IMG/VR virus record: IMGVR_UViG_2778261151_000006
Span: 1-34,757 of that record
DNA: 34,757 nt
From: a virus
Taxonomy: Duplodnaviria; Heunggongvirae; Uroviricota; Caudoviricetes
Direction: 5' to 3' (one strand)
A program made the position numbers and the translations under genes. The notes under the pieces are model-generated. The model saw only the letters and a program-made list of their open reading frames with translations, did not search any database and was not told where the DNA came from. Numbering within the stretch: position 1 is the stretch's first letter; each line of letters begins with the position of its first letter. This document shows positions 304-14,244 of the stretch, piece after piece.

Positions 304-346
304 TGGGAAAGATAAGAATAAAATCAAAGCAATAAGCAGTGTAATG

Positions 347-373
347 AAACCACCTTCGGGTGGTTTTTTTTTT
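347..373 (+). terminator. Rho-independent terminator of the tRNA operon
   Basis: Hairpin ccacc-ttcg-ggtgg followed by a run of 10 T. Confidence 0.8.
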
Positions 374-483
374 ATTTGTGTCTGGGATAATGGCGGTAAA
401 GTGGCGATGGTATGGCGGTATGTAGTTACAAGGGGAGAGTAACTTTTGGTTTGTGGCAAAAGGTCCCCTCATCTGTGAGGGCA

Positions 484-520
484 CCAAAAAGAAAACCCGC
501 AGTTTTTACGCTGCGGGTTT
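484..520 (-). terminator. Terminator-like hairpin downstream of the 541-1547 operon (copy 1 of a near-identical 37-bp element)
   Basis: Minus strand reads aaacccgcag-cgtaaaaa-ctgcgggtttt-cttttt; about 34/37 identical to the element at 1721-1757. Confidence 0.6.
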
Positions 521-540
521 CTGGGAGAAAATCAGGCAAT

Positions 541-921
541 TTATGAGTTCTGGAATTCTTCTGCCCGTCTTTCCAGCTCAGCCATGAAAGAAGTTTTGGC
601 TTTTTCGTGAGCATCTGGGGCCATGATGCTGATGATTTGTATATTGTCATAATCCATCCAGTGCCTTGTATAAACCAGATAGATATTTGAAGTTCTGTCT
701 ATTTGGGCTTTGCTTTTCTTCCATGGTGGTTCTGACGGTAGTCTTATGTGTAATTTATATACAAACGAACCACATAATCTTGCGTTATCTTCCCACTGCC
801 CTTCATTGCCGAATCTGTCAGGGAGAACACCGGTATTTAACCAGTTTTCCAGAGCCTTTCCGTAAACTTTTGCAATGTCCTGGTATTCAACATCTTTATG
901 AATGCTTACTTTGCTTGCCAT
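541..921 (-). CDS. Hypothetical protein (126 aa), translationally coupled to the upstream gene
   Basis: ORF with ATGA stop/start overlap at 921 and GGAG 8 nt upstream of the ATG; no family recognised by eye. Confidence 0.55.
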   Translation of the reverse strand: MASKVSIHKDVEYQDIAKVYGKALENWLNTGVLPDRFGNEGQWEDNARLCGSFVYKLHIRLPSEPPWKKSKAQIDRTSNIYLVYTRHWMDYDNIQIISIMAPDAHEKAKTSFMAELERRAEEFQNS

Positions 922-1547
922 CAGGAAAACTCCGGTGCCGGGAGTCCCATGTTTTTATGCTCGGCAATAATCATTGCTTTCACATTTCCGTCAGACAGCG
1001 TATTGCCCAGGCTGGTCGTTTTGTCTGGTGCGGTGCTTCGTTTGATGGCGTTGATGGCATCACGAGCGATAAACTCCCCCTGCGCAATTGCCCGACCAAA
1101 ACGAACCAGTTTATTGCGATAGGCGATTCTTTGCTCCAGGCTATCCGGATACATTTTTGCCAGGTTATCCGGATCCATTACAATTTTGACAGCCTCTTTA
1201 ACACGGGTGTGCTGCTTAAGTGACTCTTCGCATATTTTTATGATTTTTGCGGTTTTGTCAGTAAACAGAGCTCCCTTGCCTCTGTTCTGTCGTTCTTCAA
1301 TGACTGCATTGAACGCGGCACGCATGTTGTCATTCAGCCCGTTGATATATTCAATAGCTTCTTCAAGAGGCAGAAACACCTGACCATCATGATGCTCAAA
1401 TGTAAGCATTGAAACCACTCTGGCGTGTGTCGCGGATTCAATAACTGTTGTTGGTAGTATCGTGCTTTTGGCTGGCACCGGAGCCAGTGATGCTGTCAGA
1501 GCTGTAGCAATAGCAGCAATGGCAGCAGACTTTGATTTTTGTTTCAT
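921..1547 (-). CDS. Hypothetical exported protein (208 aa) with N-terminal signal peptide
   Basis: Start chosen at ATG 1545-1547 (GGAG 6 nt upstream); N-terminus MKQKSKSAAIAAIATALTASLAPVPAKS is a typical Sec signal; longer ORF to 1559 is possible. Confidence 0.65.
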   Translation of the reverse strand: MKQKSKSAAIAAIATALTASLAPVPAKSTILPTTVIESATHARVVSMLTFEHHDGQVFLPLEEAIEYINGLNDNMRAAFNAVIEERQNRGKGALFTDKTAKIIKICEESLKQHTRVKEAVKIVMDPDNLAKMYPDSLEQRIAYRNKLVRFGRAIAQGEFIARDAINAIKRSTAPDKTTSLGNTLSDGNVKAMIIAEHKNMGLPAPEFS

Positions 1548-1720
1548 AATGCACTCCATAGGTTGATGTGTTCAGCATATCGCAAATAGCAGCTTGTATA
1601 AAGAAACGCCACATCAGCAGTGATCGTTTTACGCGCTTTTATTCTTGTTGCGATCCTTTTTTTCAGTTTTATTCGGGAGCTTAATTTTGTGCAGTCCGCG
1701 TCGCGTCTGGGTGAGGGTAG

Positions 1721-1757
1721 CAAAAAGAAAACCCGTAGTTTTTACACTGCGGGTTCG
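1721..1757 (-). terminator. Terminator-like hairpin, likely 3' end of the hok-like mRNA (copy 2 of the 37-bp element)
   Basis: Minus strand reads aacccgcagtgtaaaaactacgggttttcttttt; lies about 90 nt downstream of the hok-like stop. Confidence 0.6.
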
Positions 1758-1846
1758 TTTGTCCATGACTGCGAGAATAGGGTGCCTTGTCGGCCTTACC
1801 CTGGCAACCGATTGACGGGGAAGTTGCCTTCCCCGTCGCGGTTTTC

Positions 1847-1987
1847 TTACTGTCTACATTGTAAGAACGCCGCAAACTCCGCTCCCCAGAAACTCATCCG
1901 TATTTCACACAGCGAACCGTGCAACATCCAGATGATGAGGATTGCCGTCACGCAGAACGTGATGGCCGTAAGCGATTTTTGCGACAT
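1847..1987 (-). CDS. Hok/Gef-family type I toxin (46 aa, single transmembrane helix)
   Basis: Not in the supplied ORF track; translated by hand as MSQKSLTAITFCVTAILIIWMLHGSLCEIRMSFWGAEFAAFLQCRQ. Has the SLCEI and E-x-AAF motifs of Hok/Gef toxins; GGAG 9 nt upstream of ATG. Confidence 0.75.
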   Translation of the reverse strand: MSQKSLTAITFCVTAILIIWMLHGSLCEIRMSFWGAEFAAFLQCRQ

Positions 1988-2090
1988 AGCACTTGCTCCT
2001 TTTTCGGAGAGGCGCTAACCTTCTACTTGCTGAGGGTAGATGGTCAGGGCCTCGGGTTAACATTAAAGTTGACTCGGGGCCTTTCCACAT
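1905..2090 (-). CDS. Possible mok-like overlapping reading frame upstream of and overlapping the hok-like gene
   Basis: 61-aa ORF in a different frame, starts upstream of hok and overlaps its 5' part, as in hok/mok/sok loci; no sequence support beyond position. Confidence 0.3.
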   Translation of the reverse strand: MWKGPESTLMLTRGPDHLPSASRRLAPLRKRSKCYVAKIAYGHHVLRDGNPHHLDVARFAV

Positions 2091-2178
2091 CTGGCCTTCG
2101 GGTATTCCCTCCAGCCATCAGCCGAAAGGCACCCGCGCGTAATCTATCGCTTTTTTGTTACTCCGGCAATTCTGCCTG

Positions 2179-2439
2179 TTAATTCTGAGGTAAAGGCAAA
2201 CTCATCTGATTGTTTCCCCTGTGTGAAGCTGGCAGCTCATGCCACGGGATACCTTCTGATGAGTGAACGCCGGAGGCGTGTTTCGATGTGAATTTATGGA
2301 AAGCTTCCAGTGTTGAGAAGCATACGCCGCATTCCAGGTTGTTACACTGGTAATACTTTTGCCGCACGGTGTTTGAATCATTTTCCGGACGACTGGTGCG
2401 GATACGGGCAGATGCGCCACAAAGCGGACAACGGAACAT
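2179..2439 (-). CDS. ogr: Ogr/Delta-family zinc-finger late-gene transcription activator
   Basis: N-terminus MFRCPLCG...YYQCNNLECG gives a C2C2 zinc finger like P2 Ogr; GGGAGG SD 7 nt upstream; position next to gene D. Confidence 0.8.
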   Translation of the reverse strand: MFRCPLCGASARIRTSRPENDSNTVRQKYYQCNNLECGVCFSTLEAFHKFTSKHASGVHSSEGIPWHELPASHRGNNQMSLPLPQN

Positions 2440-2481: not shown

Positions 2482-3591
2482 TCAGTCTGTTTCCGCTATC
2501 CATTCCGGGATTTTTGCCTCAAGCTCAAGCTGCGTGGTAAAGCCGCTGTTATCAATGGTGTGCCCGGCTTTCGCAATAATCCAGTCCTGATTATCAATCT
2601 CGCTTTTAAATCCTGTTACCGTGCCATGCATTTCGGGGTAGAGTTCTGCACGTCCACGTGCCAGCGTGATGGAGAATGATGCGGCTCCGCGTTGTAGCTG
2701 CTGCCACTTTGCCGCCGCTGCGCGTCTTGCTGCCTGCTCGTTCTGATAAGTCTTGCGTAACACAAACACATTGCCTTCCGCGCCTTCCATATAATCACCT
2801 TCACGGCTGCTGCTTTTCTCCTTTTTGGGTTTTGGCGGTTTGCGGCGTTTCACGCTGACTTTTTTCTTTTTCCCGTAATTAAGATCAAGCCAGTAAGCGC
2901 GTACCCCCGTATACGCCTCGCGGTCAGCAATGCGGAACTGATGGCGATCGCCGCTGCTGCGTGTGATGGCGAACGATGGCAACGGCTGGCCCTGTGCGTT
3001 CACGCCACCGCCGGGCATGATGAATAACAGATTACCGCTTTTTACCGTGGTGATTGCGCCCAGCATTTCCGCCATGCGCGTAAGGAAGGACATGTCGCTT
3101 TCTTCAGTCTGGTCGGCGTGGTCGATTTCGATATCCATCAGCATTTCGCTGATTTGCGGTTTCAGACCGTACCGGTGAGCGATGGCGGATACCACGCGCT
3201 CAACGGTCACATCATGCCAGGACACCTCACGTTTAACGTTAAATTCATCCCGAAAATCTGCGCTTCTGGCTGAAACAGTCAGCCTGTCCGGCGGTCCTTC
3301 GTGAGCGATTTCATCAACAATATAAGTGCCTTTTTCTGTCAGTGGTTCTCCTTTCCAGCCAATGAGAACCGTCAGGCGCGCGCCCCGTGGTGGTAGCTGC
3401 AACTGACCATCTGCATCATCCAGCGTGATGGTGAGCTGGTCCGCTTCAAATCCCCGGTTGTCGGTCAGTGACAGGCTCATCAGTCGCTCTGTCACGTCGG
3501 GCAGTGTTTCACCTTCCGCGAGAATATCAAAATCCGGCATTTTCACGGGGTCCGGGCCCTGACTGAGCAATTGCATGGTGGTATCGGTCAT
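2482..3591 (-). CDS. P2 gpD-like tail protein (late control gene D family)
   Basis: 369 aa from ATG 3589-3591 with strong GGGAGGGA SD; contains LTDNRGFEADQLTITLDD region typical of the gpD family; ORF track extends it to 3723 but no SD there. Confidence 0.85.
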   Translation of the reverse strand: MTDTTMQLLSQGPDPVKMPDFDILAEGETLPDVTERLMSLSLTDNRGFEADQLTITLDDADGQLQLPPRGARLTVLIGWKGEPLTEKGTYIVDEIAHEGPPDRLTVSARSADFRDEFNVKREVSWHDVTVERVVSAIAHRYGLKPQISEMLMDIEIDHADQTEESDMSFLTRMAEMLGAITTVKSGNLLFIMPGGGVNAQGQPLPSFAITRSSGDRHQFRIADREAYTGVRAYWLDLNYGKKKKVSVKRRKPPKPKKEKSSSREGDYMEGAEGNVFVLRKTYQNEQAARRAAAAKWQQLQRGAASFSITLARGRAELYPEMHGTVTGFKSEIDNQDWIIAKAGHTIDNSGFTTQLELEAKIPEWIAETD

Positions 3592-3748: not shown

Positions 3749-4933
3749 ATGAGTGAAACTCGTTTTCATGGTGCCCGTGTTACGGAAAGTACCGACCTGG
3801 TAACAGCGATTAACGATGTTGATTCCAGCGTTATCGGTATCGTGGCAACGGCGGATGATGCGGACGCGGAGCTGTTCCCGCTGAACAAGCCCACACTGCT
3901 GACCCGCGTCAATGACGTGCTGGGAAAATGTGGGACAACGGGGACGCTTTATCGTGCACTTAAGGCCATCGCAGACCAGGTGAGCACAAAGGTGATCGTT
4001 GTTCGCGTGGCTGAACACAAAGACGAGGGCGGAAAGACGCAGGATCAACTGGTTATCGGTGGTTCTGAATCTGACGGCAGCTATACGGGGATGTATGCGC
4101 TGCTTGTTGCAGAGCAGGATGAAAGCATCGGATACCGTCCGCGTATTCTGGCCGCGCCGGAGCTGGACACGGAGGCGGTAACAAAATCCCTGTGCGTGAT
4201 TGCGGGTAAACTGCGCGCGTTTGTGTATGCCTCATGTCATGGCTGTAACACGATGGCTGAGGCGATTACCTACCGCCAGAAATTCAACGAACGTGAGGTG
4301 ATGCTCTTATGGCCGGACTTCATCGCCTACAACCCCAAAAGTGGCAAAAACGAAACGTTCCCCGCGCCTGCCTATGCGTGCGGCCTTCGTGCGTACATTG
4401 ACCATGAGCAGGGCTGGCACAAATCGCTGTCCAACGTTCCTGTTAAAAATGTGCTGGGAATGTCCAGGCATGTGTTCTGGTCGTTGCAGGCCGAAGACAG
4501 TGATGCCAACAGCCTCAACAACAAAGAAATCACGACCATTATTCGTCGCAACGGGTTCCGCTTCTGGGGCAACCGCACACCGGAAACGAACGCCTACATC
4601 TTTGAGGTGTATACCCGAACCGCACAGGTGCTGGCTGATTCAATTGCGGAAGCGCAGTTTGAAACCATCGACAGTCCACTGACGCCTGCGAACGTGAAAG
4701 ATGTTATCAGTGCCATCAGGGCAAAACTGGATTCACTGGTTACTGCCGGGAAACTGATTGGGGCGTCGTGCTGGTATGACGTGGTGGATAACGGCACCAC
4801 GAATTTACGTCAGGGGCGCGTGCGTATTCGCTACAAATATACGCCTGTTCCCCCGCTGGAAGACATGGAGCTTTACCAGTCGTTTACTGATGAATTCTTT
4901 GGTCCCGCATTTGCGGTGCTGGGAGGTGCCTGA
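3749..4933 (+). CDS. Tail sheath protein (P2 gpFI-like)
   Basis: 394 aa; motifs DADAE-FPLNKP, IADQ, LRAF-Y, YRQ-F, WPDF, EQGWHK-LSNV, RR-GFRFWGNRT, YTPVPPLE match P2 FI as recalled. Confidence 0.95.
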   Translation: MSETRFHGARVTESTDLVTAINDVDSSVIGIVATADDADAELFPLNKPTLLTRVNDVLGKCGTTGTLYRALKAIADQVSTKVIVVRVAEHKDEGGKTQDQLVIGGSESDGSYTGMYALLVAEQDESIGYRPRILAAPELDTEAVTKSLCVIAGKLRAFVYASCHGCNTMAEAITYRQKFNEREVMLLWPDFIAYNPKSGKNETFPAPAYACGLRAYIDHEQGWHKSLSNVPVKNVLGMSRHVFWSLQAEDSDANSLNNKEITTIIRRNGFRFWGNRTPETNAYIFEVYTRTAQVLADSIAEAQFETIDSPLTPANVKDVISAIRAKLDSLVTAGKLIGASCWYDVVDNGTTNLRQGRVRIRYKYTPVPPLEDMELYQSFTDEFFGPAFAVLGGA

Positions 4934-12075: not shown

Positions 12076-14244
12076 TTAAACGCTCGCTACATTATACCAT
12101 GTGCCATTTATATACTTTTGAACGGGTCTGTAATAAACGCCAGCTATATTATCGGCAGAGTTTTTGCCTGTATCCTGAACATTAATACCAGACAATACAT
12201 GACCTGAAGGGCACTGGAAATTCCATGTTTGCCAGTTATTCACACCATAATATTGCTGTGAGCCAAGCCGGACATCTTTCACATATCTGGAGTCAAAATT
12301 GCCATAATTGCCGGGAATAACTTGCGCACCACAAAGCCAGTTACCGTTATTATCCATGTACGCCTGACCATCGGTGCCATTGGCTGTCCTTGAGTTATTA
12401 ATCATGTAGATGCCAAATTGCTTATTCCCCAGCCCACCAATTACGAATTTACGGTCGGTATGGTCCTGGCGAAGCAATGCCTGCGCACCATCGTTGGATA
12501 CCGCATTACGGCCCAGAATAACATTCTGGTCACGCATATGAATCCACATGCCGGTACTACTGTTAATTGCAAAACGGTTTGCAAATATATCTCCTGTAAC
12601 AACCAGACCATGCCCCATGCTTATCCGGCCAGTTCTGAGATTAAGCGTAAAGGGGCGTAATGGCCCTATATTACCATTTTCTCCCTCATTCTCTCGTGTA
12701 GGGATGATATGCAGGCATTCTTCAGAACGGCGAAAAATGGCACCAAAAGATGAATTAAATATCCTCAGTGCATTGACTGTCGATATTTTCACTTCACTGC
12801 TGAAAAGGGCTTTAACAAGAACAGACAAAGCATTCCATTTAAGATTCATCAGGTCTTTAGGCCGGGTGCCAATGATGCGGTGTCTCCATTTGAAATACTC
12901 ATTGCCGTTGTCGCCTGTTTCAAACCACATGTATGAATCAGTATCGCTGTCGGCATCATTTTTAAAACCAATCTTTGCCCAGTCAGTATTCCGAATCCAG
13001 GCAAGGATTGAGTCGTTTTCAAAAGTAAGCCCACCGGACAAGATATCGCCTGTCTTTTGGACGGCGTTACCAGCCTTGTTTACCGTTTCCTGTAAACCGA
13101 GGTATTCGATAACGGCGGCAACGGTCGATTTCGCAAGAATATCCCGCCCTACTTTTGTCAGAGTTGCCAGGCTGGCGACATCATTCCCCGTAAAATACGG
13201 AAACCTGTCTGCCGCAGTAGCAAGCCCGGCCAGCGCCGTCAGGGTGGCATCTTTCGGTTGCTTACCCGCAAGCGCGTTAGTCATGGTGGTCGCAAAATTC
13301 GGGTCGTTGCCCAGCGCCGCCGCCAGCTCGTTCAGCGTGTTCAGTGCGTCAGGTGAAGAGTCTACAAGTGCGGCAATCGCGGCCATAACGAAAGCCGTGC
13401 TTGCGATTTGGGTATTATTCGTTCCCTGTTGTGCAGTTGGTGTTGTTGGCGTTCCGGTCAGTGCCGGGCTGTTTAATGGGGCTTTCTTGTTCGTTTCATC
13501 CATTACCGCCTTAACCGCTTTTGGTGTCGCTGCCAGCGTTTCAGACGTGCTGTTGGTTGCACTGCTGAGCTGGACTATCCCTTTTCGTGCCGTCGTGGCG
13601 TCCTGAGCGGTATATTTTCCGTTAGCCAGGTCATACGCGGCCTTAACCGCTTTCGGCGTTGCGGCCAGCGTTTCAGACGTGCTGTTGGTGGCGTTGCTGA
13701 GCTGGACAAGGCCTTTTGCGGTCAGCGAGGCGTCCGGGTGACGTCGTGACTGTTCATGCTCTTTCAGTTTGTCATCCACGTAATTCACTGTGGCCATCAC
13801 CATGGTGTTATCCACGGTAAGCGCCACAGTGGCAGTGCTGGATACGGTCAGAATGGTGCGAAATGTTTGTGCACGTCCGGATCCTTCGGCAACGGTTGGC
13901 TTGTAACTTTCGGCAGTATTGCCTACCGCGATCAAATCGCCGTGCTCATCAAACACACCAATTTCCCGGATCCAGAATCCGCCCGTTTCAGGAGGAATAA
14001 CCAGCTCCGCAATAATGTGGTTCTGATGTGTTGCGTCCAGGGTGACGCGATTAACGGTATGTCGCCACACCTCATGCACAAGACGGGTCTGCTTACTGTC
14101 TGGCGTGGGTAAAGTACCGCCGCCGTCACCCACGGCCATATGTGTCAGGCGGACAGGCTTGCCATCTGACGCGGCTGCCTGAGCTAATTTTTTGGCACCA
14201 GTATCAGTGATAATGGTTTTAAATTTTCGTGTTGTGGTACTCAT
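12076..14244 (-). CDS. Tail fibre protein (P2 gpH-like); constant N-terminal part plus invertible C-terminal part
   Basis: 722 aa; contains the duplicated motif [21 protein letters not shown] and C-terminus [12 protein letters not shown]; crossover site inside the coding sequence. Confidence 0.9.
13087..13112. repeat. Invertase crossover site (gix/hix-like) inside the tail fibre gene
   Basis: ttcctgtaaaccgaggtattcgataa, inverted relative to the site at 10012-10037. Confidence 0.8.
13509..13706. repeat. Tandem about 66-bp duplication (period 132 bp) within the tail fibre gene
   Basis: Two near-identical copies ccttaaccgctttyggygt...gctgagctgga at 13509-13574 and 13641-13706. Confidence 0.6.

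Follow-up and report, generated by a model that had tools for sequence, protein, structure and literature searches.

The window, that is, the whole stretch of DNA analyzed here, comprises positions 1 to 34,757 of IMG/VR virus record IMGVR_UViG_2778261151_000006, a member of the Caudoviricetes. Near its left end lies a two-gene module on the minus strand, bracketed by two near-identical hairpins and followed on the right by a hok/sok-type locus. The segment at 466-1709 is interpreted here as a moron, an accessory phage cargo unit, that encodes a YafO-family toxin and a putative antitoxin, and the hairpins are interpreted as homologous transcription terminators of different provenance that came to flank it through an out-of-register crossover. 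A probability of roughly 0.7 is given to this interpretation. The features on which it is built are as follows, with lengths in nucleotides (nt) or amino acids (aa).

466-1709, minus strand: transferable unit (the cassette), consisting of the small hairpin, R1, the toxin gene, the partner gene and a 5' leader, as delimited by homology in other genomes
464-481, folding in both orientations: small hairpin ("sh"), CCCTCA-tctg-TGAGGG, whose right arm forms the initial part of the 45-nt repeat
475-519, minus strand: R1, intrinsic terminator of the two-gene operon, with the stem AACCCGCAG/CTGCGGGTT, an 8-nt loop and a UUUUCUUUUU tail
541-921, minus strand: YafO-family (RelE/BECR-fold) toxin gene, 126 aa, Pfam PF13957
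921-1547, minus strand: partner gene, putative antitoxin, 208 aa, with GGAG 7 nt before the ATG
1574-1602, minus strand: candidate sigma-70 promoter of the module, TTTATA and TATGCT with a 17-nt spacer (8 of 12 matches; a weak candidate)
1711-1755, minus strand: R2, which terminates the hok mRNA and has a stem weakened by a C.A mismatch; homology to the hok loci of P88, UTAK-23 and ST69 begins here
1721-2134, minus strand: hok/sok-type type I toxin-antitoxin locus, with the hok open reading frame (ORF) at 1847-1987 and the sok/5' region at 1974-2134

A predicted YafO-family toxin and its upstream partner

The 126-aa product is predicted to be a YafO-family endoribonuclease toxin. It matched Pfam PF13957 over profile positions 2-101 of 101 with 96.5 bits (cut-off, 25; E = 1.1e-27), and an AlphaFold model built from 29 homologues, with a predicted local distance difference test (pLDDT) score of 90.5, showed the RelE-like alpha/beta (BECR) fold. 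The protein is not an orthologue of K-12 YafO, as it reached only 42.7 bits against the NCBIfam equivalog PRK09885, for which the cut-off is 153. It belongs to a distinct subfamily of 125-128 aa found in Enterobacterales and Vibrio, the same taxa as the partner, in which H58, R76, H87, H105, K56 and E44 are invariant. Among the PHROGs, it matched a family of unknown function only.

The partner gene lies directly upstream, and the two genes overlap in TGATG. A sequence-only reading of this DNA, made before the present analysis, had described the two ORFs as encoding a signal-peptide protein and a coupled 126-aa protein, and both ORFs (921-1547 and 541-921, minus strand) are as it described; the signal-like start is real. 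Small, co-directional, overlapping genes that are kept together, with the partner upstream, form the layout of type II toxin-antitoxin modules. A YafO gene directly follows the partner gene in each of the six distant contexts examined and also in three E. coli prophage contexts, and this pairing holds down to ~25-30% identity. The distant contexts include a Serratia P2-like prophage, where the pair comes right after ogr; the Vibrio parahaemolyticus chromosome, where it lies between rne and sbcB; a chromosomal locus between aldose-epimerase and GAPDH (gapA-like) genes; a chromosomal locus beside thiI; and the classical P2 gpA-portal hotspot. The toxin is the more conserved of the two proteins (for example, 76% versus ~50% identity between the Vibrio and Morganella pairs), as is usual for toxin-antitoxin pairs. 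Judged by layout and conserved pairing, the two genes would constitute a type II toxin-antitoxin module.

A hint bearing on neutralization comes from homologues of the partner that lack the C-terminal ~25 residues and also lack a YafO neighbor. These truncated homologues, of 141-150 aa, are without the first ~38 and the last ~25 residues of the partner and are encoded in the gpD-ogr interval of other P88-like prophages, with no YafO gene adjacent. One example is found at 4001-4453 of locus L014, a P88-like prophage beside ihfA/pheT; the corresponding gpD-ogr gap in the window is only 42 bp.

In the proposed mechanism, the partner would neutralize the toxin, probably through its C-terminal helix. 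When the labile partner is lost or shut off, the RNase would be freed and translation would be blocked. The outcome could be retention of the prophage, abortive-infection defense, or both. Such a role is favored by what is known of these families and by the context, because two addiction-type modules appear to stand side by side at this prophage end, hok/sok (type I) and the YafO pair (putative type II), and because the slot that holds the YafO pair is a variable cargo slot.

The 208-aa partner and its signal-like N-terminus

Searches of Pfam (even at E <= 1), NCBIfam, PADLOC and PHROG gave no informative family for the partner. Its own family is small, forming 38 clusters at 90% identity and having 32 representatives in a set of 1.84 billion proteins, and is confined to Enterobacterales and Vibrio. 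Many members (homologues P0003-P0031) are named "iron-sulfur cluster assembly scaffold protein SufA" in NCBI/UniRef, a label that looks like propagated misannotation because no Pfam or NCBIfam model backs it. The AlphaFold model (pLDDT, 73.6) consists of an N-terminal helix, a disordered linker, a helical bundle and a separate C-terminal helix at residues 186-199; the signal-like N-terminus corresponds to residues 1-27. Foldseek comparison of this model with the PDB returned generic helical bundles only (CorA, MukF and talin, at E >= 0.3), which were judged meaningless, and a PDB profile search gave no match. The homology and structure searches suggested by the sequence-only reading thus placed the toxin in the YafO family and left the partner without a meaningful match of family or fold. 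In distant homologues that share only the C-terminal third (P0055, P0060, P0062 and P0063), no DNA-binding N-terminal domain was detected by Pfam. Within the partner gene, 1136-1155 and 1160-1179 form a 20-nt near-repeat (90% identity), which gives the duplicated peptide motif ...DPDNLAKMYPDSLE....

The signal-like N-terminus is the one genuinely unusual feature of the locus. In close homologues it comprises a basic n-region, an Ala/Ile/Leu stretch (Kyte-Doolittle value of ~2.0 over 15 residues) and a VPA↓(K/Q)S site, which is conserved and obeys the -3/-1 rule. The partner contains no Cys and is therefore not a lipoprotein, and no RR, so that it is not a substrate of the twin-arginine translocation (Tat) pathway. 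This start could suggest that the 208-aa protein is secreted or periplasmic and acts in lysogenic conversion, with the 126-aa gene as an accessory, rather than the two being a toxin-antitoxin pair; an exported conversion factor had been proposed earlier as a candidate. Such a view would also suit the position in a prophage cargo slot and the failure to detect an antitoxin-type domain. However, it is improbable, for several reasons. First, the downstream gene encodes an unambiguous member of the YafO/RelE-fold RNase toxins, and the supposedly exported protein is its conserved upstream partner, coupled to it through TGATG and accompanied by it in six distant contexts that include non-phage chromosomal sites. 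Second, the segment SLAPVPAKST, which spans the would-be cleavage site, is the most conserved part of the partner, with a mean column identity of 0.95 versus 0.56-0.76 elsewhere, and this is atypical for a cleaved signal. Third, very distant homologues keep LAPVPAxS, some of them with acidic residues in the would-be n- and h-regions, and AlphaFold pairs residues 21-25 with the invariant strand 56-60. Together, the conservation, the acidic residues and the strand pairing argue against a simple cleaved signal. Finally, no virulence or surface-modification domain was found.

The 45-nt repeat and its hairpins

The hairpins that bracket the module belong to a direct repeat of 45 nt. Its copies, R1 (475-519) and R2 (1711-1755), are identical at 41 of 45 positions and spaced 1236 nt apart. 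They had been described as near-identical elements of 37 bp at 484-520 and 1721-1757. That description stands insofar as there are two real copies, above chance expectation (0 of 100 shuffles reached two or more matches); it is mistaken in the length and by one base in the register, as the two segments agree at 17 of 37 positions when compared as described and at 33 of 37 when 484-520 is set against 1720-1756. The recurrence of the element, which had been proposed as a check, was followed up as well: neither a third copy nor an att-type duplication was found in the 34.7-kb window, and the hairpin with its left flank is present in 648 of 5,426 complete E. coli genomes, at a median of one place per positive genome.

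In each copy, a palindrome, AACCCGCAG-N8-CTGCGGGTT, is followed on the minus strand by UUUUCUUUUU. R1 begins 20 nt past the toxin stop codon, has a stem of 11 bp with six G-C pairs and was flagged by the terminator scan, which predicts termination. R1 and the small hairpin next to it fold as a pair at -33.5 kcal/mol (z = -5.1). The two copies differ at R1 positions 482 (C/T), 484 (C/G), 500 (C/T) and 510 (G/A). The difference at 510 lies in the loop, and that at 500/1736 lies in the stem, where it produces a C.A mismatch in the minus-strand RNA of R2. R2 has the same U-tract tail as R1 on a broken stem; it folds less stably (-14 kcal/mol, z = -1.0) and was not among the hits of the terminator scan.

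Only the right arm of the small hairpin is kept at R2. In other prophages, the stem of the small hairpin shows compensatory changes, with CTACCCT/AGGGTAG and TTACCCTC/GAGGGTAA found beside CCCTCA/TGAGGG, and the hairpin may be a back-up or bidirectional terminator. R1 and the small hairpin may insulate the operon from the tRNA operon on its left, and the weakened R2 may allow read-through from hok into the cassette. An Rfam scan of 300-2600 gave sok as the sole match, so that the hairpins fit no family there, and no paper on this hairpin or on the partner family was found in the literature. A 14-nt similarity between the R2 flank at 1707-1720 (CTGGGTGAGGGTAG) and an internal stem of the hok leader at 2026-2039 (CTTGCTGAGGGTAG) may be due to chance.

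R2 as the terminator of a hok-type mRNA

R2 is the 3' terminator of a hok-type mRNA, whose gene comes after gpD and ogr, on their 3' side, in the P88-like prophage. The hok ORF (46 aa) matched Pfam HOK_GEF PF01848 with 30 bits (cut-off, 22; E = 4e-7). The segment at 1974-2134 (minus strand) matched Rfam sok RF01794 with 53.6 bits (E = 1.4e-10), slightly short of the gathering score of 59, and relatives are annotated as Hok/Gef or MokW-like in this region. The predicted hok RNA (~414 nt) is strongly structured (z = -7.7). Shortly before its terminal hairpin, AAGGCACCC (1788-1780) is the exact 9-nt complement of GGGUGCCUU at the 5' end (2134-2126), as would be expected of the hok fold-back element (tac/fbi). 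This pairing is unused in the minimum free energy fold of the hok mRNA, which did not reproduce the 5'-3' fold-back.

In phages P88 and Chuche, as well as in every module-free P88-like prophage sampled (at serS, ihfA, flk, ytfP, leuZ and a sixth site, in strain ST69), hok is immediately followed on its 3' side by this hairpin. The earlier suggestion of two hok-type terminators was thereby borne out. Compared to known hok/sok loci (plasmid R1, chromosomal hok and the MokW-like loci of Stx and P88-like phages), the locus shares the Hok ORF and the terminal hairpin and probably also a sok-like 5' region and the 5'/3' complementarity. It differs in that one copy of the hairpin, R1, stands at the end of a putative protein toxin-antitoxin operon rather than of a hok mRNA. 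The homology with Stx-phage hok (~84%) ends at 1780 and thus does not include this hairpin.

Occurrence of the cassette

Cassettes were found in 23 of the 5,426 complete E. coli genomes, always in a prophage cargo region and always followed by R1. There was no match to the cassette DNA in the phage collection, and plasmids gave one match only, a Pantoea copy that is 69% identical. The exact junction of module and R2 had no match among GTDB species representatives. The bracketed arrangement at leuZ is identical in 10 assemblies. Two other arrangements exist, at serS and beside raiA, and four loci representing them were fetched (L001 and L004 for serS, L002 and L003 for raiA).

At serS, in a P88-like prophage, the cassette stands in place of hok: 467-1647 are homologous (98.8-98.9% identical), and homology resumes in ogr at 2145. 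In the serS prophages of FDN-11 and UMNK88, a 279-bp fragment annotated as a pseudogene lies between cassette and ogr (4173-4451 in L001 and 5119-5397 in L004), and it is probably a recombination scar. Beside raiA, the cassette lies next to a gene for an OLD-like nuclease in the cargo end of another P2-family prophage, and 466-1709 are homologous (97.4-97.7% identical). All four loci have a single hairpin, at the 3' end of the cassette. The 35-nt core of R1 (485-519) recurs unchanged after the cassette in L001, L003 and L004 and with one mismatch in L002, and the hok terminator of P88 has the identical core too. The Serratia and Vibrio copies have unrelated terminators. The hairpin is thus taken to be a hok terminator that the cassette gained within the E. 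coli phage pool, since there is a single 3' copy in the fetched loci and unrelated terminators are found outside E. coli.

The module is absent, with a single hairpin at hok-ogr-gpD, from P88, Chuche and the PV0838 serS prophage. It is therefore an insertion relative to P88, Chuche, PV0838 and ST69, with its own terminator, R1, and a weak candidate promoter. These results agree with the earlier suggestion of a moron, as does the comparison with prophage-free relatives that had been proposed for the region downstream of leuZ. In K-12, yecA is the next gene straight past the leuZ terminator and there is no module; homology to K-12 and ~5,400 other complete E. coli genomes ends at ~370.

Origin of the bracketed arrangement

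Each copy of the repeat appears to share the history of the DNA beside it. R1 goes with the cassette, as described above. R2 has two private substitutions, which occur in none of 14 other copies examined and in all 10 assemblies with the identical arrangement, and its flank, TGAGGGTAGC, resembles the small-hairpin type of the ST69/raiA lineage. In ST69, the order is a methyltransferase remnant, an OLD-like nuclease, the small hairpin, R (the hairpin element), hok, ogr and gpD. This DNA is 98.4% identical to that of the raiA prophage up to the exact right edge of R, and beyond that edge one has hok and the other the cassette. This switch marks the hairpin as a recurrent mosaic breakpoint, next to a variable cargo slot. 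At the other end, the homology of the cassette 5' side to the raiA context ends at 1709, one base before R2. The motif TCTG, read directly from the sequence at 472-475 and 1706-1709, provides a microhomology at the 5' junction.

These observations are consistent with the following history. The cassette would already have acquired a hok-type terminator in E. coli phages before the bracket formed. A donor phage with the order small hairpin, R, cassette would have met a resident phage with the order small hairpin, R, hok. One out-of-register, microhomology-mediated crossover would then have produced R1, the cassette, half of a small hairpin, R2 and hok, with the 5' end of the cassette joined within the loop of the resident small hairpin at TCTG. 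R2 would be the resident terminator of hok/sok, and R1 and the small hairpin would have come with the cassette. The order of events is a reconstruction, for which a single crossover would be the simplest history.

The sequence-only reading had offered a small integrated cassette with duplicated ends as another possibility. In this form, the 45-nt element would be a specific recombination site of an attC-like or Campbell type, and a circular one-copy cassette of 1,236 bp would have integrated at the resident hok terminator. The direct repeats do abut the insert exactly, R and the module make a circle of 1,236 bp, and at least three independent mosaics break precisely at the right edge of R; homologies of ~40-50 nt are enough for phage single-strand annealing recombinases. 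Similar to integron attC cassettes, the module is also short, promoter-poor and ended by an imperfect palindrome, and toxin-antitoxin pairs are common integron cassette cargo. However, the copies carry the divergence of the neighboring DNA, matching different lineages, and do not look hybrid; the 3' copy stands alone in all four other fetched loci; and the 5' boundary varies with context (1647 versus 1709) and looks illegitimate at this locus. Direct reading of 475-525 and 1711-1760 revealed no RYYYAAC/GTTRRRY core sites of attC, and unlike attC, the element is a U-tract terminator native to hok, with one hairpin per cassette elsewhere. Finally, only two copies occur in the window, and element-bearing genomes have a median of one place each. 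Integration of this kind is considered quite unlikely.

A duplication of the 45 nt in situ, at a staggered break in the palindrome or by replication slippage when the foreign DNA was inserted, with later divergence of the copies, is very unlikely. The repeat does flank the insert exactly, and palindromes are known fragile sites. However, the copies differ at 4 of 45 positions (~9%) while the cassette is 98-99% identical between genomes, the R1 core is the same as the copy linked to the cassette in unrelated contexts where R2 is missing, and the R2 flank (TAGC) resembles another small-hairpin lineage. A target-site duplication likewise conflicts with the single-copy contexts and with the fact that the copies are 9% divergent.

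Tandem elements were also considered, with the repeats as their att sites and the 1.2-kb segment as the remnant of a second prophage or satellite. A tRNA gene adjoins, and direct repeats at a prophage end are typical of att duplications. Nevertheless, this explanation is hardly credible, as the host/phage junction at ~370 is away from the repeat, and the hairpin is also found beside hok within the free phage genomes of P88 and Chuche. Its occurrence in prophages at serS, ihfA, flk, ytfP and raiA shows that the hairpin belongs to the phage and does not derive from attB. The position of the junction excludes an att pair, as does the presence of the repeat in free phages and at these five other integration sites.

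Points weighing against the interpretation

Several points weigh against a toxin-antitoxin moron bracketed by a crossover. First, searches of Pfam, NCBIfam and the PDB, by sequence and by fold, detected no known DNA-binding or antitoxin domain in the partner (Phd/YefM, RHH, HTH, AbrB or Panacea), and there is no operator-type inverted repeat upstream of the module. Second, 208 aa is large for an antitoxin. Third, the N-terminus of the partner resembles a Sec signal (basic n-region, Ala/Ile/Leu h-region and VPA↓K), and a protein that is exported could not neutralize a cytoplasmic RNase. Fourth, PADLOC has no model for either protein, so that a defense role is unsupported by that library; toxicity and neutralization are both inferred. 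Fifth, no convincing promoter was found, and a stricter promoter scan was empty at 1574-1602; the candidate there lies within the part of the module conserved in all contexts (466-1647). Finally, the proposed crossover presupposes an earlier junction of R with the cassette, and the Serratia and Vibrio terminators are unrelated to R.

Two further, mutually independent readings are rather unlikely. The partner may represent a new family of antitoxins targeted to the Sec pathway or the inner membrane by its strictly conserved, signal-like N-terminus (LAPVPA↓xS), and the hok terminator hairpin may be a dedicated crossover site at which P88-like phages swap cargo through short homology.

Setting at the prophage end

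The prophage is P88-like, of the genus Xuanwuvirus with a P2-type tail, and is integrated just past the leuZ terminator. The neighboring features are as follows.

1-303, at the start of the window: tRNA-Gly, tRNA-Cys and tRNA-Leu(UAA), the glyW-cysT-leuZ genes
346-367, plus strand: leuZ terminator, from the terminator scan; host DNA ends at ~370
2179-2439, minus strand: ogr/Delta-type late transcription activator (Pfam Ogr_Delta, E = 5e-14; annotated relatives agree)
2482-3591, minus strand: gpD-like tail (late control D) gene, from the ORF list, with the start that relatives use, at the 369-aa position
from 3749: sheath gene, divergent

From ~371 onward, the DNA is the right, attR-side end of this prophage. 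Positions 371-437 are shared only with the UTAK-23 prophage, which is P88-like and also integrated at leuZ. The next 28 nt (438-465), which separate this leuZ-type att arm from the point where cassette homology starts, have no counterpart in any fetched locus. On the minus strand, the order toward the left end is gpD, ogr and the hok/sok-type locus. The open frame of gpD extends to 3723, and Pfam Phage_GPD matches the 369-aa product in loci with the identical arrangement.

Two of the assemblies with the identical arrangement gave further observations. In CP050862 (2292-3448 of L025), an insertion sequence with an rve-family transposase lies inside gpD, and that copy of the prophage is therefore defective. 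In CP065611 (L019), host uvrC is 99.7% identical to that of E. coli, which places this host in the E. coli/Shigella complex. Elsewhere in the window, 13508-13603 and 13640-13735 form an imperfect direct repeat of 96 nt (82% identity, 132 nt apart) within a tail-fibre-like ORF of 722 aa (12076-14244, minus strand).

P88-like prophages have two variable cargo slots. In relatives, the slot between the hok terminator and att contains an OLD-like nuclease, com with a methyltransferase, DUF4875, or DUF4177 with a YidD-like gene, and the slot between ogr and gpD contains DUF2971 or PIN-domain genes. The relatives compared were L028, L036-L039 and L008, and the equivalents in the window are 371-475 and 2440-2481.

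Relation to known systems

In yafN-yafO, the antitoxin gene precedes the toxin gene (PMC11980606), and the two overlap. Compared to K-12 yafN-yafO, which forms part of the dinB operon, the cassette pair shows the same gene order and overlap, and its toxin belongs to PF13957 with the same BECR/RelE fold. However, the cassette toxin is non-orthologous, and its partner is not YafN- or Phd-YefM-like, is twice as long and has a signal-like start. Furthermore, the K-12 pair belongs to an SOS operon, whereas the cassette pair is prophage cargo.

ToxM is a proposed membrane-associated type II toxin-antitoxin system (PMC11980606). Like the present pair, it has a BECR-fold toxin and, in one of the two partners, a segment of hydrophobic or membrane type. 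In ToxM, the transmembrane domain is on the toxin, whereas here the hydrophobic N-terminus is on the putative antitoxin.

Compared to the morons and hotspots of P2-like phages (Rousset et al. 2022, PMC9122126; bioRxiv 10.64898/2026.02.27.708500), the cassette is similarly an accessory unit that has its own terminator, lies between genes adjacent in sister phages and moves from phage to phage, and the classical gpA-portal hotspot houses one distant homologue pair. Unlike these, the cassette slot lies between the hok terminator and attR, outside the two hotspots described, and its genes are not in PADLOC.

Implications

The locus is an ordinary phage moron, and there is no support for an exported virulence factor. 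What is new is an unannotated partner family for a distinct YafO subfamily, with an odd and conserved N-terminus; the kind of element is well known. For the evolution of these phages, the conserved terminator hairpin works as a joint where one unrelated module (hok, the YafO pair, nucleases or methyltransferases) is exchanged for another. Direct repeats around a moron can thus come from an out-of-register crossover, with neither transposition nor integration involved. The results also flag a small unannotated family as the likely antitoxin of a YafO subfamily in prophage cargo slots. If the N-terminus of the partner does target the membrane, the pair would represent a new wiring of type II toxin-antitoxin systems; otherwise, it would be an ordinary addiction or defense moron. 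In a Sec- or membrane-targeted antitoxin, neutralization of a YafO-type RNase would be coupled to the status of the envelope or of secretion, and, for example, a phage-induced block of the membrane or of Sec would trigger abortive infection.

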